The notes beneath the pieces are model-generated. The model searched no databases, was not told the origin of the DNA, and saw only the letters and a program-made list of their open reading frames with translations. A program made the translations under genes and the position numbers. Shown here piece after piece: positions 2,088 through 28,524 of a stretch of DNA of 32,000 bases. How positions within the stretch are numbered: the stretch's first letter is position 1; every line of letters begins with the position of its first letter. The stretch covers positions 930,001 through 962,000 of the forward strand of contig NZ_CP147990.1 in the NCBI RefSeq assembly GCF_037902255.1, in the 5' to 3' direction. This DNA is from Candidatus Electrothrix sp. GW3-4 (lineage in GTDB: Bacteria; Desulfobacterota; Desulfobulbia; Desulfobulbales; Desulfobulbaceae).

Positions 2088-2556
2088 CACTACTCTTTTT
2101 ACCCTCAAGCAGTTTCAGGAGCTGACCAAAGCGGAATGCACGGACCATTTGATGCAGCTCCTCGGCGAGTTCTGGATGATCAGCGTGGATATTGCCGATC
2201 ACCTCTTCTGTCGTTGCGATATCTTGCCTCTGCGCTGCGTTGCGCATTCTTGCTTGCTGTTCAGCCGTGTCGTTCTTTTGTTCCTCCTTATAACGATAGC
2301 GCACACCAAGATATTTTTCCATGACAGAGAAGAGTTCACTGGAGCGGAAGGGTTTATGTACTACTTCGTTACAGCCTGCCGCCAAAATTTTTTCGTGCTG
2401 CTCCTGAAAGACGCTGGCTGTGAGCGTGACAATCGTTACGTTGTCACCACCGGGTTGACATGGGGGGAAGCGAGAACGGCATTGCCGCAAATGACATCTG
2501 CAACAGAAACAGACAGCTGGTAATAAGGAGAACAAGACGGTAGCGTATACTGGTGC
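2071..2556 (-). pseudogene. Remnant of a response-regulator receiver domain (last third only) plus a ~70-aa tail
   Basis: ORF 2071..2691 (-) contains GGDNVTIVTLTASVFQEQHEKILAAGCNEVVHKPFRSSELFSVMEKYL, which matches beta4-alpha4-beta5-alpha5 of a REC domain. The phospho-acceptor Asp region is absent. The only in-frame Met start lies inside the IS. Its stop overlaps the ATG of the downstream kinase by 17 nt (GATGACAACAAGAAATAA), as in a coupled RR-HK pair. Confidence 0.5.
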
Positions 2557-2628
2557 TAGTGCTCTGTAAAATCTAAATTTTAGGGTAGCGTATTTAAAAT
2601 TAATGTAGCATGTTGTCCGAAAAAAAAA

Positions 2629-3087
2629 TTGAAAGAGGATTTCATGCCAAAAAAATACATTGTCCAATTGACTCCAAAAGAACGCTGTCATTTACAGGAG
2701 GTTATCAAAAAGCTTTCGGGGGGCAGCCAAAAAGTCCGTCGTGCTCACATCTTATTGAAAGCTGATGCAAATGGCCCCTGTTGGAAAGACAGCAGGATAG
2801 CAGAAGCATTCAACTGTAGGACAAAAACGGTTGAGAACATCCGTCAAAATTTTGTTTTGCACGGTTTTCAACAGGCTCTTGACGGAAAAAAACGTGCAAC
2901 CCCGCCTACTCCGAAACTATTGAATGGGGAGCAGGAGGTTAAAATCATTGCCACTCGTCTTGGTTCACCTCCGCCGGGATACGCAAATTGGTCACTGCGC
3001 CTTTTAGCCCGACATGTTGTTGAATTGGAAATAGTTCCGTCGATCAGCCATGAAACTATTCGCCAAGTAATAAAAAAAACGGGATGA
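2629..3087 (+). CDS. IS630-family transposase OrfA (HTH DNA-binding part)
   Basis: 152 aa, MPKKYIVQLTPKERCHLQEVIKKLSGGSQKVRRAHILLKAD..., matching the winged-helix/HTH N-terminal half of IS630 transposases. It ends VIKKTG* with a TGA overlapping the orfB ATG. Confidence 0.85.
   Translation: MKEDFMPKKYIVQLTPKERCHLQEVIKKLSGGSQKVRRAHILLKADANGPCWKDSRIAEAFNCRTKTVENIRQNFVLHGFQQALDGKKRATPPTPKLLNGEQEVKIIATRLGSPPPGYANWSLRLLARHVVELEIVPSISHETIRQVIKKTG
3072..3079 (+). promoter_or_regulatory. Probable -1 programmed frameshift site (A8 run) joining orfA and orfB
   Basis: The site is ATAAAAAAAACGGGATGA. orfB (codon phase of 3084) is -1 relative to orfA (phase of 3085). The -1 frame is open across the run (NKKNGMNN). 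A slip gives ...RQVIKKKNGMNNRKIQYWVIPP, which resembles the contiguous KKN-x-KPW-x-WxIPP junction of fused IS630 transposases. Confidence 0.55.
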
Positions 3088-3779
3088 ACAACCGGAAAAT
3101 CCAATACTGGGTTATTCCACCAAAACACGATGCGGAATTCGTGGCCAACATGGAAGATGTGATAGAGGTTTATGAAAGACCGTATAATCCTAATCATCCT
3201 TTTCTTTGTATGGACGAACAACCAGTTCAGCTGATAAAGGAAACTCGTTTACCTATCCCGGCAACTATAAATCATGCTAAACGCGTTGATTATGAGTATG
3301 AGCGTAACGGAACAGCCAGTATTTTCATGTTCACCGAGCCTCTTTCAGGCTGGCGTGAAGCCACAGCTCGTCCTCGGCGGACTAAAACAGATTGGGCGAT
3401 CGAAGTGGCTCGCCTCCTTGAAGGTCGCTATGCAGAATGTGAAAAGATAACGTTGGGTTGCGATAATCTCAACACCCATACAAAGGGAGCTTTTTATGAG
3501 GCTTTTCCTCCTGAACGTGCTCGTGCATTAGTACGCCGGATTGAATTTTGTTACACACCGAAACATGGTAGCTGGCTCAATATAGCAGAAAACGAATTGA
3601 GCTCCATGACTCGACAATGTCTTGCCAATCGTCGTATAGGAGATATCGAGACGTTACAGAAAGAGATTGCCGCATGGTCAAGCGATGTGAATAACACTCA
3701 ACGTGGTGTTGAGTGGCAAATGAAAATTTCTGATGCCCGTTGCAAATTAAAATCCGTTTACCCTAAAATTAAGTCGTGA
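3084..3779 (+). CDS. IS630-family transposase OrfB (DDE catalytic part)
   Basis: 231 aa with LCMDEQP, LGCDNLNTH and SWLNIAENELS, the DDE_3-like triad context. Confidence 0.85.
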   Translation: MNNRKIQYWVIPPKHDAEFVANMEDVIEVYERPYNPNHPFLCMDEQPVQLIKETRLPIPATINHAKRVDYEYERNGTASIFMFTEPLSGWREATARPRRTKTDWAIEVARLLEGRYAECEKITLGCDNLNTHTKGAFYEAFPPERARALVRRIEFCYTPKHGSWLNIAENELSSMTRQCLANRRIGDIETLQKEIAAWSSDVNNTQRGVEWQMKISDARCKLKSVYPKIKS

Positions 3780-3786
3780 CAGAGCA

Positions 3787-6700
3787 CTAGGTGTTATTTC
3801 TCTGTTTCCTGAGATACTTTGACATAACAGTGAACATCTCTTTTTCGTTAAAGGGCTTGCCGATATGTTCATTCATGCCTGCCTCTTTGCTTTTTTTCTG
3901 ATCTCTCGTCAGGACATTGGCAGTGAGAGCAATGACTGGCAGATCTTGATACTGCGGGAACTTACGAATCTCCTGACAGGCGGTGTAGCCATCCATGACC
4001 GGCATTTGGATATCCATCAGCACGCAGTCAAAGCTGGAGGTTTGCAAGATTTCCAGGGCCTCTGCCCCGTTGTTTGCCACCGTGACGACAATTCCCTTGC
4101 GGGTCAGGAGGAGCTTGGCGAGTTCCTGGTTGAGCTCATTATCTTCTACGAGCAGGACCTTGGCGCCCTTGAGATTGAGAAATTCTTCCTCAGAATTTGT
4201 TGCGTTCTTTTTCTTCTGCCTTCCCGGTTGTTCAGGCGAGTAAGCAACAAAGGGCAAGGTGAAATAAAAACGCGATCCTTGACCAGCGCCACTTTCAAAC
4301 CAGATTGTGCCACCCATCATTTCCACCAGTTTTTTACTGATGGAGAGACCGAGGCCGGTTCCTCCGAATTGCCGGGTGGTAGAGCTGTCTCCCTGACTGA
4401 ATGATTTAAACAGCTTGCTTTGTTGTTGGCTGTTCATGCCGATGCCTGTATCTGTAACACAGAACTCAAGTAAGACGATTTCATCCTGCTCATGGAGGCG
4501 TTCAACGTCTATTTTTACGTGGCCTCTGCTGGTGAATTTGACCGCATTATTTCCCAGGTTGATCAATATCTGTCTCAGGCGCAGTGGGTCGCCTTTCAGT
4601 CTTTCCGGTACCTCGGGTGAAATATCGATATCCAGGTGGAGCCCCTTTTCTGAGGCCTTTAATCCGATGATATTGGTAAAATGCTCAAAGACCTTGTCCA
4701 GGCGGAAGGGAATGGTCTCGATTTCAAGTTTTCCCGCCTCTATTTTGGAGAAGTCGAGGATGTCATTAATAATACCGAGAAGAGATTCCGCTGAGCTATA
4801 GACCTTCTCGATATAGTTTTTCTGTTCTGCATCAAGGGTCGTCTCCAGAGCCAGGCTGGACATACCGAGGATTGCATTCATCGGCGTACGAATTTCATGA
4901 CTCATATTGGCAAGAAATTCTGACTTTGCCTTGTTGGCTGCTTCGGCGCGTTGCTGAGCCTCTGCCAGTTTTTCGGTAATGTATTCGTATTCAGTCGTAT
5001 CTTCCAGGATTCCGTTGATGGCTAACAAGGTTCCATCGTCATTATAAACCGGATGGGAGGAGACCCTGATCGTGCGTAACTCACCGCCTGGATGGTGGAA
5101 CTGCATAGCATGCTGGATGAAGTCCGATTTTCCCTCTTTGATTCTGGAAAGATGAAAGCGGTGTTGCTCCAAGGATTCCGGGAGCCAATTGATGATTTTG
5201 CTCCAAGCTATGTTGCTCTTGGTTTTGTCTACTGCGCAGCCAAAGACCGAGCAGAGGCTGTCGCTGGCATAGGTCCAGACCTCCTCATCAGGAGACTGGC
5301 TGAAAACGACGAATTTGTCACCGATATTTTCGACCAGTCTGCGATATTTTTCCTGATTTTCTTGCAGCTGCCTTTCCTTTTTTTTCCGGTCGGTAATATC
5401 ATGGATGACCTGGAGGATTGCAGGGCCCGTGTCATCTTCTGTAAATTTTGTTGAAGTGATTTCAAAGATTCTTTCAGCACCGGAAGAGGGGAGAAAGCAG
5501 ACAGATTTTTCCTGTTCAATAGCGTTTTTTACATATATGCAGTCCCAGGGAGACTGTTGATCATCTGTGAGGAAGCCGCTGTTCTTGCCTGTCATATCGC
5601 CGAACCAGTTCATCATTACCTGATTCATGTAGCGAACCCTATGATTCGAGTCAATGATGATGAGTCCTTCACCTACCCTGGAGAGGGCATTGATAATGGC
5701 TGTGGATCGGGACTGACTCACTTCGAGATTGCTTTTGGCTCGTTGGAGGTCCGTAACCTTGTCATTGAGGAGGGCTGTGCGCTCACGGACCTCCTGTTCA
5801 AGAGCGGAGTTGGCCTCCCACATTTTTTGTTCAACCTTAGCCAGGTTACAGGAAGCATAACAGATAGCCAGGAAGAGAAGGAGAGTAACGCTGATAATCT
5901 TGAGACGGATTGTGGAAGTGAGCTCTGTCAGCTCCTGTTTGCTGATATGGGAGACCACCTTCCAGAGATAGTTGTCCGGTGTGTGGTGGAGAAGATGCAG
6001 CTCGCCAGCCCCACTTGTCTGAATGCCGTCCAGGGGATGTACCGTGCTCCAGATCCATAAACCATCTTTATTCTGCAAGGTACCTTTCTCTGTTTGTTGG
6101 ATTTTTTGCCAGGTTGTGGGGAATTTTTTTTCCAACCTCATATTTCTGAGATTGAACATGAAACCCCATTCATCAGCAGCATTCGGGCTAATCAACCAGT
6201 ACCCCTCCCTATTCAACACAGACACCCGGTTTCTGATTTTGAAGGTGGTGGCGAGAAAATTGTCCAGCATGTACCGGGCCGCGTAATTAATGATCAAAAG
6301 GCCACGTCGTTTGCCTGAGTGGTCGGTAAGGGGGGTGGCTATACGGATTGTCGGTTTAAAGGGGTATTCCAACTGACCACGTTCAATATTGAGGTCAAGA
6401 GGTGAGATGAAGATCTCTCCCAGAGAAAGTTTTAATGTTTCAGTAACATAATAACGACCGTTTTTATTCTGCAAGAGATGTGGCGGTGTCGTCTTGGGAC
6501 CATCAGATGCGTAATCGACACGTACTCGCTCCATCCCTGTTTCGTCGATCCAGCGAATCTGATCGTAATACCCTTTGATCCGAGAAAAATGGATGAAGTT
6601 TTCAGAGAGTCGTTCCAGGTTTTGTTGATCAGGATGTGTTATTTGATCAAGCAGACTGCTTTGACCAGCAAGATAGAGCAGGTCTCTGGAGATTTGTTTG

Positions 6701-6897: not shown

Positions 6898-7293
6898 TAT
6901 GTTTTTTGAGGAAGGCTTGCGCAGGAGATGTGGCTTATAGAATGGTATTCTTTTCGGTTTATTAGATAATTGACAAAATAAGACACATGAGTATGTCATG
7001 CTTTCGTCTTTCCCGTCAATAGAATTTTCGATTTTGCAGCAAGTATTGCCTTTTCCAGGAGAGGGGCAGACGTTGGATATCGTGCTCAGAAAAAAGGGGT
7101 GGTTGGCTGTTTTACGAGGATACTCTTCATGCACAACATCATATTCTGTGGAGTATTGGCACCACATCTGATTGCATAATAATGAAAAATGACGTACCGT
7201 GAGAACGCATGTTTTGAGAAATACTGAGGATGCCTGCTCGATAGAACTGGCTCGTCATGAAATGAATAACTTTTTAATCTCTATAATAAAATT

Positions 7294-9162
7294 ATGTGCG
7301 GGATAAGCGGGTTTAACTGGAATGATGAGGCCCTGATTCGGGCCATGACCGATACCCTGGAGCATCGAGGCCCAGACCAGCAGGGCCATTTCTGCTCGGA
7401 CAAGATGAGTCTGGGGTTCCGGCGACTCTCTATTATTGATCTCAGTGAAAACGGGCGCCAGCCCATGTTCAATGAAGACGAGACCGTGGCCCTGGTCTTT
7501 AACGGCGAGATCTATAATTTTCAGGAGCTGCGCAAAGAGCTGAAGGATAAGGGCCATGTTTTTCGTAGTAAGGCCGATTCCGAGGTTATCCTTCATGGCT
7601 ATGAGGAATGGGGTGTGGATGTCATCCATCGGCTGCGGGGCATGTTCGCCTTTGGCCTTTATGATATACCCCGCAAGCGCCTGCTGTTGGTCCGGGACCG
7701 CATCGGTATCAAGCCGCTCTATTATACCTACAAGGACGGGCGCCTCCTCTTTGCCTCGGAGATCAAGGCCATTCTGGAAGACCCGCAGGTGGAGCGGCGG
7801 ATCAACTACCAGGCCATGTACGATTACCTGGGCTTTGAGTTCGTGCCTGCGCCCCAGACCATGTTCGCGGATATCCATAAGCTGCCTGCCGGGCATATGC
7901 TGGTCTTTGAGAACGGCGCCATCCATGAGGAACAGTACTGGGATCTGCACTTCCATCCCGGAGAAAATAAGCTCTCTTTTGATGAGGCCGTGGAAAAGAT
8001 GCGCGAGCATCTGGACTATGCCGTGTCCAGTCACTTGGTCAGTGATGTGCCGTTGGGGGTCTTTCTCTCTGGTGGGCTGGATTCCAGCTGCCTGGTCGCC
8101 CTGATGCGTAAGCATCTGACCGGCTCCTTTAAGACCTTTACCATTGGCTATGAGGACAAGACCTTTAGTGAGCTGGATTACGCCCAGGTCGTGGCTGATC
8201 ATTGCCAGACCGATCACCAGGTCCTGGTCCTGGATACCCTGAAGCCGGAGTACGTGGAAAAGACCCTCTGGCATTTGGATGAACCCATGACCGATCTCTC
8301 CACTGTGCCCCTCTACCTCCTCTGTAAGCAGGCCCGGGAGCACGTCACGGTCTGTCTTTCCGGCGAAGGGGCGGACGAGAGCTTTGCAGGTTATGACCGC
8401 TTCAAGGCCAGCCGCATGAGCAGGTGGTTCAACCTGATGCCCGGCCCGCTGCGCAAGCAGGTGGTTGGTCGCCTTACGGCCATGTTGCCGGATCAACCGC
8501 AGAAGAAGGGGGCAATCAATATGCTCAAGCGCTTTGTTGAGGGCGCGAACCTGGATCCGGCAGGACAGCATCTGCGCTGGCAGTACTTCTTTAATGCTGT
8601 GCTGGAGGCCAATCTCCTCCAGAGCGGCTTTCGCAGCAAGGTTGAGCTGGATCCGTTCCGACAGCTCCGGGACTATAATGCCCGTTGTGATGCGGGCAAG
8701 GACCGGGTGAATCAGGAGATCTACCTGGATATGCGCTTTATGATGACCGACTCGGTGCTGATGAAGGTGGACCGGATGTCCATGGCCAGCTCCCTGGAGG
8801 TCCGGGTGCCTCTGCTTGACCATGTGTTGGTGGAGTTCATGGCCTCCCTGCCCGGCGACTGGAAGCTCAAGGGCATGACCACCAAGTACATCTTTCGCGC
8901 CGCCCTGGAAGGGCTGCTGCCGGATAAGATCGTTAACCGGGGTAAGCAGGGCTACAGCCTGCCGGTCAAGCATCTCCTGCGCGGGGACCTGAAGCAATAC
9001 ATGATCGAGTTGCTCAACGATTCAACCGTAATCCGGGAAAATATGGATCAGAGCTATGTCAAGCGGCTGATTGATGAGCATTGTAGCATGCAGCAGAACC
9101 ATAACCATGTGCTCTGGGCCCTGATCAATATTGCTATCTGGCATAATCGATTTTTTAACTGA
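7294..9162 (+). CDS. asnB: Asparagine synthetase (glutamine-hydrolysing)
   Basis: 622 aa. It has N-terminal MCGISG (Cys2 Ntn amidotransferase), RGPD, the SGGLDSS PP-loop, and a C-terminal synthetase domain. Confidence 0.9.
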   Translation: MCGISGFNWNDEALIRAMTDTLEHRGPDQQGHFCSDKMSLGFRRLSIIDLSENGRQPMFNEDETVALVFNGEIYNFQELRKELKDKGHVFRSKADSEVILHGYEEWGVDVIHRLRGMFAFGLYDIPRKRLLLVRDRIGIKPLYYTYKDGRLLFASEIKAILEDPQVERRINYQAMYDYLGFEFVPAPQTMFADIHKLPAGHMLVFENGAIHEEQYWDLHFHPGENKLSFDEAVEKMREHLDYAVSSHLVSDVPLGVFLSGGLDSSCLVALMRKHLTGSFKTFTIGYEDKTFSELDYAQVVADHCQTDHQVLVLDTLKPEYVEKTLWHLDEPMTDLSTVPLYLLCKQAREHVTVCLSGEGADESFAGYDRFKASRMSRWFNLMPGPLRKQVVGRLTAMLPDQPQKKGAINMLKRFVEGANLDPAGQHLRWQYFFNAVLEANLLQSGFRSKVELDPFRQLRDYNARCDAGKDRVNQEIYLDMRFMMTDSVLMKVDRMSMASSLEVRVPLLDHVLVEFMASLPGDWKLKGMTTKYIFRAALEGLLPDKIVNRGKQGYSLPVKHLLRGDLKQYMIELLNDSTVIRENMDQSYVKRLIDEHCSMQQNHNHVLWALINIAIWHNRFFN

Positions 9163-10637: not shown

Positions 10638-11285
10638 TTACAGGCTCAGCTCTTTTTTCACGGCCTCAATAACCGCGTCGCTGGAGGTCGCCTCAACAGA
10701 GAGCAGCAGACCTTCTTTCTCGTAAAAACCGATCAGCGGTGCAGTCTTCTCGTTATAGGTGGCCAGACGATGGCTGATAGCCTCTTCGGTCTCGTCTTCA
10801 CGCTGTACAACCTTGGCGCCACACTTGTCGCAGATCCCTTCCTGCTTGGGCGGGTTGGACTTGACGTTGTAGATGGCCTGGCAGTCACCGTTCTCACAGG
10901 TACGGCGGGTGCAGAGACGATCCAGGATGATGTCCTTGGGCACATCGATGTTCACTGCCTTGTCCAGGGTGATGTCCAATTTTCCCATCAGCTCTTTCAG
11001 GGCCTCGGCTTGGGGAATGGTGCGCGGGAAGCCGTCCAGCAGGAAACCTTTGGCACAGTCATCTTCCTGAAGACGTTTTTCCATAATGCCCATGATCAGG
11101 GAATCAGGAACCAGGTCACCTCGTTTCATGTAGCCTTCTGCCTCTTTGCCCAGGTCGGTTCCGGCCTGCACTGCACCACGCAGGATGTCGCCAGTAGAGA
11201 TTTGGACAGAACCATCGATAGCGGTCAGCAGTTTAGCAACAGTTCCTTTGCCCGCACCGGGTGCGCCGAGAAGGATAAGTTTCAT
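10638..11285 (-). CDS. adk: Adenylate kinase with a Cys4 zinc lid
   Basis: 215 aa. It has MKLILLGAPGAGKGT (P-loop) and the lid CTRRTCENGDC...CDKCG. Confidence 0.95.
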   Translation of the reverse strand: MKLILLGAPGAGKGTVAKLLTAIDGSVQISTGDILRGAVQAGTDLGKEAEGYMKRGDLVPDSLIMGIMEKRLQEDDCAKGFLLDGFPRTIPQAEALKELMGKLDITLDKAVNIDVPKDIILDRLCTRRTCENGDCQAIYNVKSNPPKQEGICDKCGAKVVQREDETEEAISHRLATYNEKTAPLIGFYEKEGLLLSVEATSSDAVIEAVKKELSL

Positions 11286-11690
11286 GGGATTCTCCTTATA
11301 TGTATTCTTTGTGATTTACTGATAAAGCAGATAGATGAATTGAGCTGCTTTTCTGTTGAATATGAGGGCCAGACTCGCCCAAAAGAAAAAATGATCACTT
11401 TACACTATCTTGGTTATTGATGGTAGGGAAAATGTGGGGGGAGGGGATTTTCAGTCAATCAATCGTCTTTTCGTGAACGTGCGGAATGTTCAGGGGATCT
11501 ACCAAAAGACCGGGGTGCTTTACCGCTGTCAGGGTTATGATCTTCGCTTCGGTGTTCGGAAAACGCTCGGTGCGTCCTCCTTCTCTGATACGGTGTTTTT
11601 TGTCCGACTGCGGCTGAGATGACCTCACTAGCAGGGGATACAAAATAAATATACAGTTTTCACAGGGGATTATACGATTTTCTCCGGCAA

Positions 11691-11984
11691 AATTCATGCC
11701 GGAATCGGTCTGATGTACATTGGAATCGACGTAATTCCAATTGGAATTGCTCTGATTCCAATTGACTTTGGTCCAATTCCAATTGACTTTGCCTTGATTC
11801 CAATTGGAATTGCCCTGATGCAAATTTACTTTGACCCGATTCAAATTGACTTTACCCTGATTGAAGTGTGAATCGTCCCGTTTGAAGTTTAAATCACTCC
11901 GATTCAAATTTAAATTGGCCCGATGTAAGTTTAAATCGTCCTGATTCAAGTGTGAATCGTTTCAATTGAACCGGCAAAAAGACC
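11691..11984. repeat. Tandem array of about 13 strictly phased 21-bp units
   Basis: Units start at 11712, 11733, 11754 ... 11943 with no indels, for example aattccaattggaattgctct, gattccaattgactttggtcc and gattcaaattgactttaccct. Units 11733 and 11796 contain the perfect 14-bp palindrome ATTCCAATTGGAAT. Degenerate units lie at both ends. Confidence 0.9.
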
Positions 11985-12283
11985 GTTGCCGGTCACCTTC
12001 GGGAATTTGTTCCTGCAAAAGTAAGGGAGAATGCTATTGGGATTCGAACCTGAGAGCCCCCTCTGTATACCCCACTGCGCGGTTTGAAAATGGCATGTGA
12101 TACCGGGATGGATACATTCTTTTATTACAACAGCCAGTTTATCCTTGCGTTATGAATGTTCTTTGATTTATTAATTGTATTAGTCACAATTGATTAAGTT
12201 TCCATGTTATCAATAGATAACTGTTGATATCCTGGAAAAGCAAAAAAGAAATTAATAAACTGGAAATATTTTTCCAGTTTTCT

Positions 12284-12367
12284 CGCTTAATATGTAATAG
12301 CCTGGAAAGTTGGTCCATATATAGGGTAATACCCTATCCCGATTCCAGGTTATCCACACTGTTAGCG
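12284..12367 (+). other. Degenerate attC-like (or attI-like) site S0
   Basis: Layout: CGCTTAA tatgtaatag CCTGGAA agttggtccat ATAGGGTAaTACCCTAT cccga TTCCAGG ttatccacact GTTAGCG. The arms match about 16/24. The left box lacks the canonical AAC. Extra CTGGAAA/TTCCAG copies lie upstream at 12231-12280. Confidence 0.4.
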
Positions 12368-12390
12368 CCCAATCAATAAGGAATCAAAGA

Positions 12391-12861
12391 ATGAACCTAG
12401 AAATTAAATGGCATCAGCCAGCCTCACTTGAAGACGGCGACGATGAGAATTTAATTTACTCAGTAGACGGATTAGAAGAGTGGGAAGACTTACCCGCAAT
12501 CTATATGTTTTGTAGAAATTATGGTGGAGTATTGGTTCCATTATACATAGGAAGGTCAAAAAACGTTGGTCAGCGCATTAAACAGCACCTCAATACAACA
12601 AGGATGATGAAATCTATTCAGAAAGCACCCAAAGGAGAGAAAGTGCTAGTTATCGGTGAATTCATCCCAAAGCCAGGTCAAAGTATTGATTCATCGTTAA
12701 AGATACTAGAAAAGACATTGATCGAACATGCACTAACAGAGGGCTATGAACTTATCAATAAATCCGGCACTAAGACTCCGGTACATACCATTTCTTTGAG
12801 TGGATATAAAGCTGCTAAAGATTTCTCTGGCCCTAAAATGTATGCTAAATCAAAGCGCTAA
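12391..12861 (+). CDS. GIY-YIG family nuclease-like protein (cassette A)
   Basis: 156 aa. PAIYMFCRNYGGVLVPLYIGRSKNVGQRIKQHL supplies the GIY...YIG...R motifs. LEKTLIEH supplies the Glu and ELINKSG the Asn. RBS AAGGA lies 8 nt upstream. Confidence 0.7.
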   Translation: MNLEIKWHQPASLEDGDDENLIYSVDGLEEWEDLPAIYMFCRNYGGVLVPLYIGRSKNVGQRIKQHLNTTRMMKSIQKAPKGEKVLVIGEFIPKPGQSIDSSLKILEKTLIEHALTEGYELINKSGTKTPVHTISLSGYKAAKDFSGPKMYAKSKR

Positions 12862-12946
12862 CCATCTAATAAACCTGACCGGGTTAACAGCTGCGGCGCT
12901 GACGCGAATCAACTCCGTGGCCGGCAGGTTATCAGGGTCGTTGGAT
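12856..12946 (+). other. attC site S1
   Basis: R'' CGCTAAC overlaps the stop codon; an alternative register is ATCTAAT at 12864. R' is GTTGGAT at 12940-12946. The arms are TAAACCTG(A)CCGG and CCGGCAGGTTA with an unpaired A. It shares the core GCGGCGCTGACGCG with S2. Confidence 0.7.
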
Positions 12947-12962
12947 GGATGAATAAATAGAT

Positions 12963-13109
12963 ATGAGCCCCGAACTTCTATATTTGCTGTTGTTCCCGCA
13001 GCAGAAAACAACAATGTTACTCTTTATGCATCCCAGGTTTATGTTCGCTATGTGTTATTAGCGTTACTGGTGATCTATCCTTGCGAAAGGTGCGAAGGGA
13101 GGGGCTCAT
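12963..13109 (+). ncRNA. Candidate retron msr-msd non-coding RNA
   Basis: A 9-bp inverted repeat ATGAGCCCC (12963-12971) / GGGGCTCAT (13101-13109) brackets ~129 nt directly upstream of the RT start. A G at 12972 follows the left repeat, the position of the branching G in known retrons. Internal hairpins are TGTTGTT...AACAACA, CCAG..CGCTA-loop-TAGCG..CTGG, and CCTT-GCGA-AAGG. Confidence 0.5.
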
Positions 13110-13120
13110 TCTTTCTTATT

Positions 13121-14650
13121 ATGACTAAACTAAAGTCAAAATTAAACAAAACGGAAGAAGTTGCTACGGATCAGTTTTCTGTTTTAAATTCAGGGCAGGA
13201 TGTCGCAAACTTTCTCGAAATCCCCTATGGCCAATTACTTTACCTTTTGTATAAAAGGCCAGACGAAAAAAAATATATCTCTTTTTATATCCCCAAAAAA
13301 ACAAAAGGCCGCCGTCTGATATCAAAACCGATGAAAGGGATTGATATTTTACAACAAAAATTAAAGCCACATTTAGAATCATTCTACCGCACAAAAGCCC
13401 CTGTTCATGGATTTGTTAAAGGGAAAAGTATAGTTTCAAACGCCTCGGCACACAAAAAGCATAAATACGTTTTAAATGTTGACCTCGCCGATTTTTATGG
13501 AACCATCAATTATGGCCGAGTCCGGGGGGTATTTCTTGCTACACCATTTAAATTTGGAGAGAAAGCTGCAAGTGTTTTAGCTCAGTTAATCTGCTTTCAA
13601 AACAAATTGCCTCAGGGGGCATGTACATCTCCTGTCGTCTCAAATTTAGTTGCATCGAATTTGGATAAAAAGTTGGTCGCCTTGGCCAAAAGGTATCATT
13701 GCCAATACACGAGGTATGCAGACGATATTACAATATCTTGCAACAAAAAAACCTTCCCTCATTCTTTGGCAACATACGAAGGAAACAATCCAATTACTGG
13801 AGAGACAATTATAGGTAAGCTACTAGAAGACACCATTGACAGTGCTGGATTCAGAGTAAACCATTCAAAAGTAAGGCTGCAAATACCATTTATTCGTCAA
13901 TCAGTAACCGGACTTACTGTCAACGAATTCCCAAATGTTAACAGAGATTTCATCAGAAGTGTTCGCGCTATGTTGCATGACTGGAAGACCAATGGCCTAT
14001 TGACAGCCGAAAAAAATTATATATCAAAGCATCCACAAAAGAAAATTGACATTCCAGAAGATAAGTTAGATGGAACTTACTTCTTGAAAGTATTTTACGG
14101 TAAGCTTTCATTTATCAAAATGGTCAGGGCAGATAAAGAGAACAATGACTCAGTAGTTTCTAACTTTGCTCTAAAAGCTGGAGAGCTCGACCCTAATCCT
14201 CCTAAATACATCAAAGAAATTATGAAAAAAAGTGAATCTTTTGACATTTTTATTGGTCACGCTAGTGAAGACAAAGACGAAGTAGCAAGACCATTGTTTG
14301 AGGAATGTGAAAAACAAGGAATTATTGCTTTTATTGATGAAATACATATCTCTTGGGGAGATTCATTAACCGAAAAAATTAATCATGCACTTGGAAAGTC
14401 TAAATATTTTTTGGCCGTTCTGTCTGAAAAATCAATTAAGAAATCTTGGCCAAGAAAAGAGCTTAACAGTGCAGTAGCGAGAGAAATAAGTGGTGAGCAA
14501 AAAGTATTACCTTTAATTGTCGGGGATCACAAAAAAATATTTGCGGAGTTTCCACTCCTAGCGGACAAATTGTTTATCCAATGGGAAGGAGACGTAGAGC
14601 AAATTGTGGATGAAATAAAAAAATTAAAAGCAAAGCATCCAACAAAATAA
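13121..14650 (+). CDS. Retron-type reverse transcriptase fused to a C-terminal TIR domain (cassette B)
   Basis: 509 aa from ATG 13121; the track ORF starts at an upstream GTG at 13052. RT motifs: YISFYIPKKTKGRRLISKP, HGFVKGKSIVSNASAH (NAxxH), LNVDLADFYGTI, LPQGACTSPVVSNL, YTRYADDITIS (YADD at 13715-13726), GFRVNHSKV and SVTGLTVN (VTG). The C-terminal ~130 aa reads FDIFIGHASEDKDEVARPL...GKSKYFLAVLSEKSIKKSWPRKELN, which is TIR-like. Confidence 0.85.
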   Translation: MTKLKSKLNKTEEVATDQFSVLNSGQDVANFLEIPYGQLLYLLYKRPDEKKYISFYIPKKTKGRRLISKPMKGIDILQQKLKPHLESFYRTKAPVHGFVKGKSIVSNASAHKKHKYVLNVDLADFYGTINYGRVRGVFLATPFKFGEKAASVLAQLICFQNKLPQGACTSPVVSNLVASNLDKKLVALAKRYHCQYTRYADDITISCNKKTFPHSLATYEGNNPITGETIIGKLLEDTIDSAGFRVNHSKVRLQIPFIRQSVTGLTVNEFPNVNRDFIRSVRAMLHDWKTNGLLTAEKNYISKHPQKKIDIPEDKLDGTYFLKVFYGKLSFIKMVRADKENNDSVVSNFALKAGELDPNPPKYIKEIMKKSESFDIFIGHASEDKDEVARPLFEECEKQGIIAFIDEIHISWGDSLTEKINHALGKSKYFLAVLSEKSIKKSWPRKELNSAVAREISGEQKVLPLIVGDHKKIFAEFPLLADKLFIQWEGDVEQIVDEIKKLKAKHPTK

Positions 14651-14726
14651 TTCAGCGGATGGCGTTATCGTTGGCGGCGCTGACGCGGTAAGTTCATTGG
14701 CGCCACCGCTGATCATGACGTTAGGC
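14637..14726 (+). other. attC site S2
   Basis: R'' ATCCAAC is a perfect RYYYAAC and lies within the last codons of the RT-TIR ORF. R' is GTTAGGC at 14720-14726. The arms are CAGCGG(A)TGGCG and CGCCACCGCTG with an extrahelical A. Confidence 0.75.
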
Positions 14727-14766
14727 AACTACGGGTTAAAACTATACTCAACTGTGGACTTGAATC

Positions 14767-15240
14767 ATGGAAAGAAAACGGTCACCAACTCCCTTTACAG
14801 ATGACTTTCAAATGCTTTGTGCGTTGATAACTCACCTTGGCTCGCATGAGAAATGGCAATCAAGGACCCCAGCCGAAATTGGTGGTAGTCTTGCTATGGA
14901 TCCGAAAGAAGTTGAAAGAGTGCTCGGCGCCTTCCCTTGCTTTTTTCGAGAGTCAGCTAACAGAAAGAAAGGGCAGCGCTTATTTACGGTTCATCTCCGG
15001 TATGCCCGACGAAAAAAAGATCCTGTCACGGGTTCGCATGTTTCAGAGCCTATGACTCCAGAGGAAATTGGCATTTTAATAGATCTATTGACGCAAATGG
15101 TTTCAATTGAAACACAAGAGTCTCAATTCGTGGTCGAAATGAGAGAGAATAACCGGAGTCATGCGCGAAGTGTGTGGGTCGCTATAGCCATTGCGTTAAT
15201 TTCGTCTATAACATCGGTCGTAGTGTCAATTATAAAATAA
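14767..15240 (+). CDS. Hypothetical protein with an HTH-like N-terminal part and one C-terminal TM helix (cassette C)
   Basis: 157 aa. RTPAEIGGSLAMDPKEVERVLG is HTH-like. The C-terminal VWVAIAIALISSITSVVVSIIK is hydrophobic. Confidence 0.6.
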   Translation: MERKRSPTPFTDDFQMLCALITHLGSHEKWQSRTPAEIGGSLAMDPKEVERVLGAFPCFFRESANRKKGQRLFTVHLRYARRKKDPVTGSHVSEPMTPEEIGILIDLLTQMVSIETQESQFVVEMRENNRSHARSVWVAIAIALISSITSVVVSIIK

Positions 15241-15268
15241 CCATGCCCCATGCTTGGGTCGTTGTGTT

Positions 15269-15664
15269 CTAGTTATGTGCATGGTTTTGATTGGAAAGTT
15301 TATATTTGCGCCTAACAAGGCAAATCCAGCCGACGCGCCAAAGGCGCGCGCGGCTGATTTGCGGCGTTAGAGCATAATAGGGGTCAGAGCCCAATAACTG
15401 GCCAAATATTTTATCGGAACGACCAGGATTATCCATTGCATGGCCCTGCCTTCTTCCAATCCCGTAGAATGCTTCCCGCACATCATTTCCCACTGATTTT
15501 CCCTGCACTGCTGCTTCAAAAAGCAGGATGCACTTCCCCTTCGCAAAATCACATTCCCGCATAAATCTCCATCCCGTACAATCAAAACACATCGCTATAA
15601 ACCTGTCCTTGGGCATTCTCTCGCTGATGTAAAAGAGTTTACTCGCAACATCCTGAAAAGACAT
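15269..15664 (-). CDS. Hypothetical protein whose 3' end reads through attC S3
   Basis: This is a sub-ORF of 15269..15895 (-) from ATG 15664: MSFQDVASKLFYISERMPKDRFIAMCFDCTGWRFMRECDFAKGKCILLFEAAVQGK... It has no convincing RBS. The last ~35 codons are encoded by the reverse complement of attC S3 and the tail of cassette C. Confidence 0.35.
   Translation of the reverse strand: MSFQDVASKLFYISERMPKDRFIAMCFDCTGWRFMRECDFAKGKCILLFEAAVQGKSVGNDVREAFYGIGRRQGHAMDNPGRSDKIFGQLLGSDPYYALTPQISRARLWRVGWICLVRRKYKLSNQNHAHN
15310..15372 (+). other. attC site S3 (63 bp, compact canonical form)
   Basis: Layout: GCCTAAC-aaggcaaatc(c)agccg-ACGCGCC-aaa-GGCGCGC-gcggctgatttgcggc-GTTAGAG. The architecture is symmetric 7-16-7-3-7-16-7 with one extrahelical base. 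Confidence 0.85.
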
Positions 15665-15771
15665 TGGGGAAAAAGCAAAAGAAAAGGGGGAAGCGAAAAT
15701 CAAATTCGTGCAGTTACAAGAATCGAGGAATGTTAAGGAATGGGATTTGTGTTGCAGCAAGGAGGGGGAAA

Positions 15772-15801
15772 TAAAAAAAGCCCGGCATGAACGGCCGGGC
15801 G
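15772..15801 (-). terminator. Rho-independent terminator of amtB
   Basis: Stem GCCCGGC (15780-15786) / GCCGGGC (15794-15800). The A7 run at 15773-15779 gives a U-tract on the minus strand. Confidence 0.75.
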
Positions 15802-15907
15802 CGTACAATTGAACAGATCGGGCCCGCAAAGGGGAGGACGTCTTCCCCGGCCCAGGGGCCGGAGAAGTCTTTGCGAACCGTTTCCGTTCGAACAAGTTGG
15901 GAATAAC

Positions 15908-17209
15908 TTACTTGGTCATGAAGTCAGCGTAGGCATGAGATCCGTGCTCGCCGTAATCCAGCCCCTCAATCTCTTCCTCTTCGGTAACCCGGAGGCCAAC
16001 GGTCATTTTGATGACGGTGAAGAGGATGAACGCGCAACCGAAGCTCCAGGCAAAGGCCGCACCAATACCGATCAGCTGGGTGGTGATGATCTTGGCAGTT
16101 ACCCCTTCCATATTGAACAGGCCCGCAGCCAGGGTACCCCAGGCGCCGCAGACACCGTGGACAGAGACCGCACCCACCGGATCATCAATGTGCATGCGAT
16201 CGATGATGACCACCGAGAGGACCACCAGGACACCAGCGATTGCACCGATAATGGCAGAGCTGGTCGGGCTGACATTGGCACAACCGGCAGTGATACCGAC
16301 CAGGCCAGCCAGGGCACCGTTAAGGCTCATACTGATATCCGGCTTCTTAAACATAACCCAGGAGGTGAGCATACCGGTAACGGCTCCGGCACAGGCAGCC
16401 AGATTGGTGTTGACAAAGATCATGGCGATGTCGGTGATGCCAGCGGTGGTGGAACCGGGGTTGAAGCCGAACCAACCCAGCCAGAGGATAAAGACGCCCA
16501 CAGCTGCCAGCGGGATGTTGTGACCAGGGATGGCCTTTACTTCTCCTTTTTTACCATACTTTCCTACGCGCGGTCCGATAACAATGGCACCGGCCAGGGC
16601 GGCCCAGCCACCGATGGAGTGAACAACCGTGGAGCCAGCAAAGTCGATGAAGCCCATACCTTCGAGCCAACCACCACCGTGGAACAGGCTGCCCCAGGCC
16701 CAGCTCCCGAATACCGGGTAAATAAAGGCGCAGAGTGCCGCGCTGTAGATCAGGTAGCTGGTGAATTTTGTCCGCTCAGCCATTGCCCCGGAAACGATGG
16801 TAGCAGCTGTTGCGGCAAAAACACACTGGAACATCCAGAAGGCAAGGACCCAAGGATCACCGCCAACCTTGAAATCGCTGAGGAAAAAACCGTCGGTTCC
16901 GAACCAACCTGTACCGCTGGTCCCGAACATCAGGCCAAAACCGATGGCCCAGAAGAACAGAGAACCCATGCTGAAGTCCATCAGGTTCTTCATCATGATA
17001 TTAATGGCGTTCTTGGCCCGGGTAAAACCGGCCTCAACCATGGCAAAGCCAGCCTGCATAAAGAAAACCAGGGCGGCAGCGACCAAGGTCCACACGTAGT
17101 CAAGGTTGGTCTGTACACCCTGGGCAGTGGGCTCGTCACCAGCACCAGCAAGGGTTGGTAACAGAGAGAGAGCAAGCAGGGCTCCGGTTAGCAGCGTTTT
17201 TTTCTTCAT
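15908..17209 (-). CDS. amtB: Ammonium transporter
   Basis: 433 aa from ATG 17209 (RBS AGGTGAG); the track ORF uses GTG at 17218. It has a signal peptide, then LDYVWTLVAAALVFFMQAGFAMVEAG, and is polytopic throughout. Confidence 0.93.
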   Translation of the reverse strand: MKKKTLLTGALLALSLLPTLAGAGDEPTAQGVQTNLDYVWTLVAAALVFFMQAGFAMVEAGFTRAKNAINIMMKNLMDFSMGSLFFWAIGFGLMFGTSGTGWFGTDGFFLSDFKVGGDPWVLAFWMFQCVFAATAATIVSGAMAERTKFTSYLIYSAALCAFIYPVFGSWAWGSLFHGGGWLEGMGFIDFAGSTVVHSIGGWAALAGAIVIGPRVGKYGKKGEVKAIPGHNIPLAAVGVFILWLGWFGFNPGSTTAGITDIAMIFVNTNLAACAGAVTGMLTSWVMFKKPDISMSLNGALAGLVGITAGCANVSPTSSAIIGAIAGVLVVLSVVIIDRMHIDDPVGAVSVHGVCGAWGTLAAGLFNMEGVTAKIITTQLIGIGAAFAWSFGCAFILFTVIKMTVGLRVTEEEEIEGLDYGEHGSHAYADFMTK

Positions 17210-17245
17210 TATTCTCACCTTGTTTCTATATATCCTAAGAAAAAA

Positions 17246-17419
17246 TTATATGGTTTTTCGACTTTTCATAAAAAAGATCAAGGCACCGGCGATCAGATTC
17301 CAGATATAATCAAGATTCGTCTGTACAGTCTTCGCAAGGGATTCATCAGCAGGAGCAACAAGGGTCGGTACCAGCGCCAAGGCAATCAGGATTCCTGTTA
17401 TCAGATTCATTTTGTTCAT
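17246..17419 (-). pseudogene. Truncated paralogous amtB 5' fragment (57 codons)
   Basis: Not in the ORF track because it is under 60 aa. Minus-strand translation gives MNKMNLITGILIALALVPTLVAPADESLAKTVQTNLDYIWNLIAGALIFFMKSRKTI*. It aligns with amtB residues ...LLTGALLALSLLPTLAGAGDEPTAQGVQTNLDYVWTLVAAALVFFMQAG. It has a good RBS (GGAG at 17428-17431). Confidence 0.7.
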
Positions 17420-22417: not shown

Positions 22418-22750
22418 GCATTGAAGTGGCAGGCGACAGCCGTACCTAAAGGTGTTTTATACTGGGCACAGCTGATGTTTATATCATCCATCGCCATGAA
22501 GAAAACGTTGCTTCAATTCTCTGTCGTCCTTTTTCTCAGGCGACAAAACAGAACGGTCATGAACCGTTCCGTATGCATCATGACAAAGGCAAACCTTAGT
22601 TCAACTAAGCGGGTGCCCTGCTTTCCGATCGGAAACGGAAAGCTGATAAAGCCACAGCCGTCGCGAGGCGGTGTCGGAAAGCCACGGATCTCCAGGGAGG
22701 AGACAGCCGGGTTGCCTGCTTTACCTATAACCTATATCGGGAGGTATGTT
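22418..22750 (+). other. Long structured 5' leader; a possible riboswitch or cis-regulatory RNA, class not identified
   Basis: About 330 nt lie between the predicted promoter and the strong RBS/ATG at 22751. Stable hairpins: GAACGGT/ACCGTTC (22551-22569), CTTAG-TTCAA-CTAAG (22595-22609), GCTTTCCG/CGGAAAGC (22620-22643), and ACA(G)CCG/CGGTGT. The motif AAAGCCAC(A/G)G occurs twice. Confidence 0.3.
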
Positions 22751-23649: not shown

Positions 23650-25399
23650 CCCACATTCCGCACGTTGACACATAAAAAAATATTTTATAACCTGCTGCCT
23701 CAAAAAGACATTTAATAAATCAACCAGGCAGCAGGTATGGAAAACAACACAACGATTTTACCACAGGAATGCTCAAGTAAACTCCTCAATCACTTGGGCC
23801 TAGTCGCGGGTATGTATGACGAACTCGGACTTGGGGAGCTGATTGACAGTCTGATTCATCAGGATAAAGAAAAGCGAGTTGTCTCAGTTGGTCAGGCAGT
23901 TAAGGCAATGGTTCTTAACGGGTTGGGCTTTGCGAATCGGGCATTGTATCTGACCCCGCATTTTTTCCAGGATAAACCGGTAGATCGACTCATCGGAGAA
24001 GGCATTGAGGCCCAGCACCTGAACGATACTGTTTTGGGCCGGGCCTTAGAAGTGATTTACGAGCATAATCCCGAAGAGTTATATTCGCAGCTTGCAGCTA
24101 GGGCAATTGGTCGTCTAGGGCTGCTGGCACGTTTTGGTCACTTGGATTCAACGAGTTTTCATACCGACGGTCGCTATCCAGCCAACGGATCAGAAGAGGA
24201 AGAAGGTGTTATTCGGATCACAAAAGGCTACAGCCGTGATCATCGTCCGGATCTGAACCAGATCGTGTTGCAGCTCATTTGCGAACGACAGGCTGGCATC
24301 CCGCTTCTGATGAAGCCGTTAAGTGGTAACAGTAGCGATAAAACAGATTTTCGGGAAACAGTGCAAGCGCATATTGATCAGATGAAAAACGATTTCAGCC
24401 TGGAATATCTGGTTGCGGATAGTGCGCTCTATACAGCGCAAACATTAAAAGAACTGAGCATGATATTGTGGATTTCCCGTGTACCGGAGACATTGAATCT
24501 GTCCCAGGAGATCATCCATGAAGTAGCTTCAAATCTGATGCAGGATCCTGAAAAAGCAGCATCTCGCAGTCTCGGGGTAGTTTATGGCGATGTCAGGCAG
24601 CGCTGGTTGGTTGTCTATTCGCCTGAAGCATATCAACGGGGACGCAAGACCGTAAACAAAAAATGCCTCAAGCTGAGCACAAATGAATCCAAGCAATTCG
24701 ATAAATTGTGCAAACAGGATTTTGCCTGCGAGGCCGATGCATTGAAAGCACTGTCCCGTTTTGAAAAAAAGCTGAAAATACTCTCAATTCATGACGCTCG
24801 TGTTGTTGCTTTACCTCGCCATAAGGGCAAAGGACGGCCAGCCAAGGGCAAGAAACCGGACTTTTATGTTTACCGCATTGAAGGCAACCCAGCCTCCCTG
24901 CTTCAGGAGAGAACCCGATTGTTGGAACGAAAAAGCTGTTTTATTCTTGCAACGAATCAGTTGGACTGCGAAGAATTGTCCGACGAGGAACTCTTGAAAG
25001 TGTACAAAGATCAGCAAAAGGTTGAACGGGGTTTTCGTTTCCTCAAAGATCCTATGTTTATGGCTTCAACGCTTTTTTTAAAATCCCGAAAACGTATCAT
25101 GGCCCTGATGATGGTTATGACGCTTTGCCTCCTGGTGTACGCCGCGTTGGAATATCGCATCAGACAAGCGCTCGAAATAAATAATGAAACATTTCCCAAC
25201 CAGAAAGGAAAACCTGCCCCTAACCCTACTGCTCGTTGGGTATTTCAGTTTTTTTCAGGAATTCACCTGCTGCTTGTCGGCGGAATGCAACAGCTGGTCC
25301 TGAATTTAAATGAACATCATTTGCGTCTGCTGAAGCTGTTGGGTGGGAGATATGAAAAATTATATTCTGGAAATGGATAGAGGGTATGCTGAATGTGGG
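23650..25399 (+). mobile_element. IS1634-family (IS4-related) insertion sequence, 1750 bp
   Basis: Terminal inverted repeats are CCCACATTCCGCA (left) and TGCTGAATGTGGG (right), matching 12/13. A 6-bp direct repeat CCATGG sits at 23644-23649 and 25400-25405. It carries a single 547-aa transposase. Confidence 0.8.
23737..25380 (+). CDS. IS1634-family transposase
   Basis: 547 aa, with HLDSTSFHTDG...GYSRDHRPDLNQ...VADSALY...YKDQQKVERGFRFLK, motifs typical of IS1634/IS4-group DDE transposases. Confidence 0.8.
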   Translation: MENNTTILPQECSSKLLNHLGLVAGMYDELGLGELIDSLIHQDKEKRVVSVGQAVKAMVLNGLGFANRALYLTPHFFQDKPVDRLIGEGIEAQHLNDTVLGRALEVIYEHNPEELYSQLAARAIGRLGLLARFGHLDSTSFHTDGRYPANGSEEEEGVIRITKGYSRDHRPDLNQIVLQLICERQAGIPLLMKPLSGNSSDKTDFRETVQAHIDQMKNDFSLEYLVADSALYTAQTLKELSMILWISRVPETLNLSQEIIHEVASNLMQDPEKAASRSLGVVYGDVRQRWLVVYSPEAYQRGRKTVNKKCLKLSTNESKQFDKLCKQDFACEADALKALSRFEKKLKILSIHDARVVALPRHKGKGRPAKGKKPDFYVYRIEGNPASLLQERTRLLERKSCFILATNQLDCEELSDEELLKVYKDQQKVERGFRFLKDPMFMASTLFLKSRKRIMALMMVMTLCLLVYAALEYRIRQALEINNETFPNQKGKPAPNPTARWVFQFFSGIHLLLVGGMQQLVLNLNEHHLRLLKLLGGRYEKLYSGNG

Positions 25400-28065: not shown

Positions 28066-28524
28066 TTGAAAGAGGATTTCATGCCAAAAAAATACATTGT
28101 CCAATTGACTCCAAAAGAACGCTGTCATTTACAGGAGGTTATCAAAAAGCTTTCGGGGGGCAGCCAGAAAGTCCGTCGTGCTCACATCTTATTGAAAGCT
28201 GATGCAAATGGCCCCTGTTGGAAAGACAGCAGGATAGCAGAAGCATTCAACTGTAGGACAAAAACGGTTGAGAACATCCGTCAAAATTTTGTTTTGCACG
28301 GTTTTCAACAGGCTCTTGACGGAAAAAAACGTGCAACCCCGCCTACTCCGAAACTATTGAATGGGGAGCAGGAGGTTAAAATCATTGCCACTCGTCTTGG
28401 TTCACCTCCGCCGGGATACGCAAATTGGTCACTGCGCCTTTTAGCCCGACATGTTGTTGAATTGGAAATAGTTCCGTCGATCAGCCATGAAACTATTCGC
28501 CAAGTAATAAAAAAAACGGGATGA
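28066..28524 (+). CDS. IS630-family transposase OrfA
   Basis: The protein is identical to 2629..3087. Confidence 0.85.
   Translation: MKEDFMPKKYIVQLTPKERCHLQEVIKKLSGGSQKVRRAHILLKADANGPCWKDSRIAEAFNCRTKTVENIRQNFVLHGFQQALDGKKRATPPTPKLLNGEQEVKIIATRLGSPPPGYANWSLRLLARHVVELEIVPSISHETIRQVIKKTG

Follow-up and report, generated by a model that had tools for sequence, protein, structure and literature searches.

Clusters of attC sites lacking integrases (CALINs) and their possible origins have been described (PMC4889954; 10.1101/2022.09.11.507474), and approximately 95% of them are not near a recognisable pseudogene of the integron integrase gene intI (Loot et al., 10.1101/2022.09.11.507474). Integron cassettes encoding phage defence (BRiCs) were reported in 2025 (Kieffer et al., Science eads0915; Darracq et al., Science eads0768; Getz et al., Nat Microbiol), and type XII retrons, in which a reverse transcriptase (RT) is joined to a TIR domain, have been reported as anti-phage (Mestre et al. 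2020, PMC7736814). Here, a stretch of 32,000 nucleotides of Candidatus Electrothrix sp. GW3-4 (contig NZ_CP147990.1, positions 930,001 to 962,000; hereafter the window) was examined, with a focus on a cassette-bearing locus between the adenylate kinase gene adk and the ammonium transporter gene amtB. With a probability of roughly 0.8, this locus is a decayed chromosomal integron, which has lost intI and kept an attI-like site together with three cassettes.

The GW3-4 locus shares with CALINs and degenerate chromosomal integrons (PMC4889954) three attC sites less than 4 kb apart, the lack of an intI within reach, and cassettes that run in the same direction as their attC sites. Unlike CALINs, it retains an attI-like site and the first codons of intI, which makes its origin readable as integrase loss from a complete integron. 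An integrase-less attC cluster may thus sometimes be traceable to a complete integron, as in this case, because the attI region and the first intI codons survive. As in BRiCs, a known defence system (here a type XII retron) is packaged in the second cassette as a single unit with its own attC, and, in line with the account of Kieffer et al., the cassette proteins also have homologs that lie outside integrons and have no attC. On the other hand, the host differs from those of BRiCs, being an uncultured cable bacterium (Desulfobulbaceae) and not Vibrio or a clinical plasmid, and the cargo is a retron with its non-coding RNA (ncRNA) inside the cassette, for which defence is predicted. The retron has the architecture of known type XII systems (Mestre et al. 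2020, PMC7736814), that is, a single-gene RT fused to TIR_2 after an ncRNA with an a1/a2 repeat; the novelty lies in its mobile context, bounded by G|TT crossovers. No description of a retron as an integron cassette was found in the papers on defence cassettes that were consulted, and no paper linking integrons with cable bacteria was found in a literature search. The locus is a clean example of an already known type of element, and the current picture of integrons, of which defence cassettes have been part since 2025, is unchanged by it. It would nevertheless add cable bacteria to the hosts that stockpile defence genes in integron cassettes, and provide a natural example of a whole retron, ncRNA included, moving between arrays as a cassette.

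A first-pass annotation of the window, made from the letters alone, had proposed an integrase-less cassette cluster inserted between housekeeping genes, in which three imperfect palindromes (S1, S2 and S3) follow three open reading frames (ORFs). The attC models, the cassette boundaries and the lack of an intI nearby all agree with this proposal, and the three palindromes are almost certainly integron attC sites:

12856-12946, + strand: attC S1, R'' CGCTAAC and R' GTTGGAT (model R1, 24.8 bits, E 2e-4; model R2, 69.4 bits)
14637-14726, + strand: attC S2, R'' ATCCAAC and R' GTTAGGC (R1, 30.6 bits, E 5e-6; R2, 98.6 bits)
15310-15372, + strand: attC S3, short type, R'' GCCTAAC and R' GTTAGAG (R1, 54.8 bits, E 1e-12; R2, 27.7 bits, E 8e-6)

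Model R1 is a covariance model of six attC sites from plasmid arrays (lnu(F), dfrA6) that includes no sequence of the window, and model R2 was built from an alignment of 23 metagenome attC sites collected by a motif common to S1 and S2. By scanning the full 32-kb window with R1 on both strands with filters off, significant matches were obtained for S3, S2 and S1 only, all on the + strand, and the runner-up was the reverse strand of S3 (E = 0.08). Both models return exactly the coordinates and end boxes that the first-pass annotation had assigned to the three sites. The scores are well above noise (186 kb of unrelated loci yielded no match with either model at E <= 0.1), and those of the + strand far exceed those of the - strand at S1-S3. 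When the bottom strands are folded, the bases left unpaired belong to the 3' arm in each case, two in S1 (T, T), one in S2 (T) and two in S3 (T, G). The sites deviate from the consensus at the final base of the S3 core and at the first two positions of the S1 inverse core; the end heptamers of the three sites are each found just 1-3 times per 32 kb, and the sites are spaced by 1.7 kb and 0.6 kb. No fourth attC and no CTCTAAC box was found to the right of S3.

Site S3 is also the best hairpin in the window in an energy scan of all AAC...GTT pairs (z = -5.7 for the DNA fold), whereas the folding energies of S1 and S2 are no better than those of shuffled sequences (z = -0.5 and -1.2). Folding energy alone could not decide S1 and S2, and therefore the covariance models and the boundary rule described below carry their significance. 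In blastn searches against plasmids, S3 matched sites located right after cassette ORFs in recognised arrays (pHRM2a, an IncC dfrA6 plasmid of K. pneumoniae, and pLNU-11 of C. freundii), and nothing significant was obtained for S1 and S2. Rfam searches in both gathering and E-value modes gave no attC or retron family, and the matches within the island were at chance level only.

A cassette start of the form TTRRRY that is complementary to the cassette's own R'' is the signature of a G|TT crossover and a circular intermediate. Because the integrase crossover falls at G|TT, cassettes begin with the six bases that complete their own attC core, and on this basis the array can be divided as follows:

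12362-12940, + strand: cassette 1 (579 bp), ORF1 (12391-12861, 156 aa, GIY-YIG; Pfam 5e-6) with attC S1
12941-14720, + strand: cassette 2 (1780 bp), a complete type XII retron; starts TTGGAT and is homologous to the first cassette of a related locus, L133
14721-15366, + strand: cassette 3 (646 bp), ORF3 (14767-15240, 157 aa) with attC S3; starts TTAGGC

At all three junctions, the cassette opens with 6 nt that are reverse-complementary to the inverse core of its own attC, with 4/4 variable positions matching in each. Cassette 1 starts G|TTAGCG (S1 inverse core CGCTAA), cassette 2 G|TTGGAT (S2, ATCCAA) and cassette 3 G|TTAGGC (S3, GCCTAA). By our own estimate, the chance of such a match at all three junctions is about (1/256)^3, and the same rule holds at 19 of the 26 junctions in control arrays.

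As the first-pass annotation had stated, no intI is found in the window. No tyrosine recombinase was detected by a Pfam scan of 11 of the 23 ORFs of at least 180 aa (the others overlap identified genes on the opposite strand). The - strand frames of 11286-12210 gave nothing relevant and no integrase remnant against Pfam at E <= 10, and tblastn with the N-terminus of the L133 integrase had no match in the window. With three attC sites and no intI found in 32 kb, the locus falls under IntegronFinder's operational rule for a CALIN (at least two attC sites within 4 kb and no intI nearby), and the earlier label of CALIN-like holds in that sense; it probably does not hold in the sense of a bare cluster, since the region at the head of the array aligns with the attI region of L133.

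It is possible, if rather doubtful, that the array is a live cassette reservoir on which an intact intI elsewhere in the genome acts in trans. In its favour, none of the three ORFs is disrupted, the attC sites have kept a proper form (they score highly with the models, and their unpaired bases are on the expected arm), and CALINs are known to coexist commonly with integrons in one genome; against this stands the literature search, in which no integron reported for cable bacteria was found. Unless such an integrase were supplied from elsewhere in the genome, the array would be frozen. If it were supplied, the folded bottom strands of S1-S3 would still serve as substrates, because their unpaired bases lie on the expected arm.

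The region to the left of cassette 1 provides the basis for regarding the locus as a decayed integron and not simply as a group of cassettes:

12198-12363, + strand: attI-like platform remnant, collinear with L133 616-778; contains most of the palindrome S0 (12284-12367)

L133 is a metagenome contig in which a divergent 145-aa ORF (186-623, - strand) lies beside a retron cassette and matches the first 108 positions of the integron integrase family TIGR02249 (3.4e-32; XerD 1e-3). Its segment 616-778, which extends from the intI start to the crossover of the first cassette, was aligned globally with 12198-12363 of the window, giving a score of 33.5; 2000 dinucleotide shuffles had a mean of -0.2, a standard deviation of 5.0 and a maximum of 20 (z = 6.7, 0/2000). 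A vestigial intI start is present in the remnant, with CAT at 12204-12206 read on the - strand as ATG GAA ACT TAA, and the crossover at the head of the array is G12361|T12362. Both the window and L133 keep the intI ATG and copies of TGGAAA/TTTCCA. Moreover, a core CCAG(G)TTAT-N-ACTG|TT (CCAGGTTAT...ACTG|TT) is common to the window, L133 and another related locus, L135, and occurs in a looser form in L097, which has an integrase fragment of its own. The first-pass annotation had pointed to the AT-rich space with CTGGAAA/TTCCAG copies as the place where intI and attI would lie. These copies are indeed conserved in L133.

The first-pass annotation had also listed S0 as a weaker attC site preceding ORF1, a suggestion that is not upheld. 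S0 is a real palindrome ending in GTTAGCG (z = -3.55); it begins with CGCTTAA and has no AAC box. Neither R1 nor R2 matches it at E <= 10, and the nearest R2 match (12242-12292, E = 0.24) barely reaches its 5' end. The lack of a model match, together with the collinearity of this region with the intI-to-crossover segment of L133, led to the rejection of S0 as an attC. Because 12198-12363 is collinear with the attI region of L133 and no integrase remnant is found further left, the locus is best read, from its sequence, as an integron whose attI-like site was kept and whose intI was lost, and less well as a bare attC cluster.

The integrase of L133 is itself truncated (145 aa of about 315), and the DNA before the attI-like core in L135 (1-264) has no integrase ORF. 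Integrase loss seems to recur in this lineage.

A less probable alternative, to which we give little weight, is that the locus is a true CALIN that never had a platform, formed when a multi-cassette circle or successive cassettes inserted at an attG site (consensus GWT), with S0 as local DNA that is palindromic by accident. The left junction G|TT fits the GWT consensus, and many small CALINs have been argued to arise by attG insertion (10.1101/2022.09.11.507474). S0 has no attC-model match, and in our own reading an ORF stays open for about 37 codons across the hypothetical pre-insertion junction. That reconstructed ORF, however, has no homolog beyond an orphan of the same genome. The 165 bp left of the junction are collinear with the L133 segment from the intI start to the crossover, including the intI ATG and TGGAAA/TTTCCA, and the core found before the crossover here stands before it in L133 and L135 too, with a looser form in L097. 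Although the junction has a G|TT crossover, its flanking DNA shows homology to an integron platform, and an attG site is by definition embedded in unrelated non-att DNA. Lastly, it is extremely improbable that the palindromes are terminators or REP-like intergenic hairpins (repetitive extragenic palindromes) in an ordinary defence island acquired in some other way: each of them sits just 3' of a stop codon, as terminators do, S1 and S2 have ordinary folding energies, and ORF1 and ORF3 homologs elsewhere occur without such sites, but the attC models match S1-S3 alone and on the correct strand, boundary complementarity holds at 3/3 junctions, a terminator scan calls none of S1-S3, the same families of sites are found where several cassettes are arrayed next to lnu(F), dfrA6 and integrase fragments, and cassette homology breaks exactly at G|TT.

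Several points weigh against the interpretation of the locus as a decayed integron. Both covariance models are home-built, as distinct from the attC model of IntegronFinder, and small (6 and 23 sequences), which makes their E-values rough. The R2 scores of S1 and S2 are partly circular, as the search motif came from these two sites; the R2 match on S3 and all R1 matches are independent. The attI assignment leans on one good comparator (L133) in AT-rich DNA, and a local alignment of part of 12198-12363 is marginal (20/1000 shuffles). The interpretation does not account for about 750 bp on the left of the integron part and about 400 bp on its right, or for the route by which the whole block came to the adk-amtB site. 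No sigma-70-like promoter was found on the + strand of the platform remnant upstream of ORF1, in a scan that was crude and concerned a host whose promoters are uncharacterised. In addition, the loci of ORF1 homologs that were examined carry no attC sites, and those of ORF3 homologs (Geotalea, Corallincola and others) have no adjacent attC.

Taking the locus as a decayed integron, the signature at the junctions suggests that an integron integrase inserted circular cassettes at the G|TT of attI. The intI gene would then have lost everything beyond about its second codon, its place being taken by unrelated DNA in which a 21-nt tandem repeat is found. Expression of the cassettes would have to depend on a promoter surviving in the platform remnant or on promoters within the cassettes.

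The second cassette is the one whose cargo is best characterised, and it contains the following elements:

12963-13109, + strand: candidate retron ncRNA (msr-msd), recognised by its a1/a2 inverted repeat, a1 ATGAGCCCC at 12963-12971 and a2 GGGGCTCAT at 13101-13109
13121-14650, + strand: RT-TIR, type XII retron reverse transcriptase fused to TIR, 509 aa (PADLOC RT-TIR_XII 9.7e-172; Pfam RVT_1 and TIR_2)

RT-TIR scores 608 bits against NCBIfam Retron_TIR_antiphage (NF042941), for which the cutoff is 600. The a2 repeat ends 11 nt before the ATG of RT-TIR. The candidate ncRNA has no Rfam match; its a1/a2 repeat and msr hairpin are conserved in six homologous loci, and its central msd hairpin changes in sequence yet persists. 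As a1 and a2 are invariant across the six loci, no compensatory change is seen in them. The RT would be expected to make msDNA (multicopy single-stranded DNA) from the msd portion of the ncRNA upstream of it, and the TIR domain fused to it would presumably act as the effector of an anti-phage abortive infection.

The closest homolog of RT-TIR is that of L133 (89% identity), and the homology extends over the whole cassette. Cassette 2 and the first cassette of L133 share 84.5% nucleotide identity over 1709 nt (blastn), with the alignment starting at window position 12946. The six bases before this position (TTGGAT, back to the crossover) are also identical in L133, so that homology starts at G|TT. 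In L135, an RT-TIR with 74% identity heads an array of six attC sites, one of which lies directly after its stop codon, and two further RT-TIR homologs sit outside cassettes. The type XII retron unit (ncRNA and RT-TIR) thus occupies a different place in each of three arrays: it is the first cassette behind attI in L133, beside an intI fragment, opens the six-attC array in L135 and comes second in Electrothrix.

The cargo of the other two cassettes is less clear. ORF1 is a member of a coherent protein family (415 representatives at E <= 1e-3) whose members stand alone and are about 155 aa long, and its matches to PADLOC defence models are weak (E about 4e-4). An AlphaFold2 model of ORF3 (pLDDT 89.6) contains a winged helix and a long C-terminal helix with a hydrophobic end. 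Its best matches in the PDB are MarR-like and generic (E about 0.02), and it has no family match; homologs up to 81% identical occur in Geotalea daltonii and others. A PHROGs search of ORF1, ORF3 and an orphan ORF at the right end of the island gave nothing useful. The domains named in the first-pass annotation (GIY-YIG, RT with TIR, and a helix-turn-helix-like fold with a hydrophobic helix) were recovered. Its further claim that only conflict-type cargo is carried is supported for one cassette of three, the retron RT-TIR, and is unproven for the GIY-YIG protein and for ORF3. ORF1 and ORF3 are conserved proteins without an assigned role.

Outside integrons, homologs of ORF1 (L140 103-441, L141 4456-4785 and L142 3-380) each have a small divergent gene upstream, which in L141 is of the XRE type (HTH_3/HTH_31) and in L140 and L142 has no Pfam annotation. 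This suggests that GIY-YIG and the divergent gene form a two-gene module that is absent from the cassette version. In two Corallincola genomes (L091 and L092, 9438-10471), the ORF3 homolog and the AIG2/GGACT-like gene upstream of it overlap at the stop codon of the latter, and the homolog lies in a run of small same-strand genes whose content varies between the two genomes and in which R1 and R2 find no attC.

The first-pass annotation had also noted a sequence shared by S1 and S2, and the 14-mer GCGGCGCTGACGCG is indeed present in both. A metagenome scan with the S1/S2 motif returned 36 stretches (JGI and ENA contigs, L097-L132), of which 32 represent one attC family of about 91 nt with three covarying stem variants and the loop GCGGCGCTGACGCG. 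In the alignment of 23 family sites, 95.6% of cells pair, and both partners have changed in 10 of the 17 pairs; pairing in slid controls is 22-49%. The search pattern itself demanded the loop sequence, and the invariance of the loop is for now an artefact of the collection method. By our own count, S1 is about 88% identical to a metagenome attC in L132, and the interior of S2 is nearly identical to an attC in L125. Family sites stand in same-strand arrays mixed with short attC sites, seven of them in L117 and four in L110. If the 14-nt loop proved to be truly kept while the stems covary, a sequence-specific role of the loop would be hinted at. Tentatively, integrons could be a route of retron spread, and the arrays discussed here may belong to an undescribed integron lineage of sediment Desulfobulbaceae and relatives, with the kept loop and repeated TGGAAA/TTTCCA in attI; on present evidence we consider this unlikely.

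A further comparison is provided by the plasmid pHRM2a (NC_012109) of Desulforapulum autotrophicum HRM2, which is from the same phylum and shares the short attC type of S3 (81% identity). Its array is mixed, including a TIR protein and a toxin gene, and no integrase is listed in its record within 1-5000 and 56903-68709. In contrast to the GW3-4 locus, it is plasmid-borne and longer, with lnu(F) present (a cassette at 99% identity) and with a multiplied cassette-like element that has no ORF; five S3-like places were found in it. The ORF-less element (about 190 bp) occurs five times (L093, at about 3806-4210, 6096-6300 and 7127-7540), starts with TTGAAT, ends with ...GTTAAACA and contains a long palindrome. 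The runs of copies all start at an attC crossover, two copies stand in tandem in two places, and the element looks like a non-coding cassette that has been multiplied within the array.

The comparison of the adk-amtB interval among relatives, which the first-pass annotation had recommended, revealed an empty site. The features of the window that bear on it are:

10638-11285, - strand: adk (adenylate kinase), the left housekeeping flank (Pfam ADK 1.6e-49)
11446-12197, no strand assigned: island DNA where intI would lie, with a 21-nt tandem repeat and a terminator-like hairpin (11981-11994, - strand); the homology of relatives stops at about 11445
15373-15779, no strand assigned: DNA 3' of the last attC, with no attC and no counterpart in the empty-site relatives; its sole ORF is an orphan (15269-15562, - strand) that reads through S3
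15780-15800, - strand: intrinsic terminator of amtB (terminator scan), where host sequence resumes
15908-17218, - strand: amtB (ammonium transporter), the right housekeeping flank (Pfam Ammonium_transp 3e-122)

The gene order glnB-amtB-adk-purC is found in two Electrothrix metagenome-assembled genomes, in which the gap between amtB and adk is 405 bp (L009) and 340 bp (L010); the interval is thus not conserved with its cassettes in these relatives. Homology of the window to them ends at about 11445 and, in L009, picks up again at about 15810; host DNA may restart slightly before this point because the - strand amtB terminator lies at 15780-15800. Compared with the two genomes, the window contains about 4.3 kb of extra DNA, which exceeds the 3.0 kb of cassettes. 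The Adk protein of GW3-4 shares 97% identity with those of Ca. Electrothrix sp. YB6 and E. gigas. The closest loci by Adk (L005-L007, 97%) were ruled out as an empty site, as synteny upstream of adk differs there; the cassettes are absent from them.

The tandem repeat that the first-pass annotation had noted in the presumed intI space lies at 11734-11960 and consists of about 11 diverged copies of 21 nt with 71-74% matches (Tandem Repeats Finder), and a super-period of 63 nt matches at 84%. A 164-aa ORF on the - strand with a 7-residue periodicity crosses this repeat and has no family match. The patch is AT-rich, as had been claimed, with a GC content of 0.34-0.45 compared with 0.49-0.58 in adk and amtB. 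A homology search with the orphan ORF at 15269-15562 found nothing beyond itself, and BLAST of the island ends, 11446-12390 on the left and 15373-15809 on the right, against the other sequences collected gave no copies. The possibility that a host gene was split by the insertion was set aside, as the - strand ORF rejoined across the junction matched just a 97-aa annotated orphan of the same genome and is uninformative.

The neighbourhood is rich in insertion sequences, yet none of them adjoins the cassette array. Two 231-aa ORFs for DDE_3 transposases (3084-3779 and 28521-29216, both + strand) are IS630-like in our own reading, and a transposase with DUF4277 and DDE_Tnp_1 is located at 23737-25380 (+ strand). 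Between glnB and amtB, a 57-aa ORF (17246-17419, - strand) has 46% identity over 52 aa to the N-terminus of AmtB (tblastn) and looks like an amtB fragment or partial duplicate. Finally, a c-di-GMP-I riboswitch aptamer is present at 22641-22719 (+ strand; Rfam RF01051, 53.1 bits, where the gathering score is 35).

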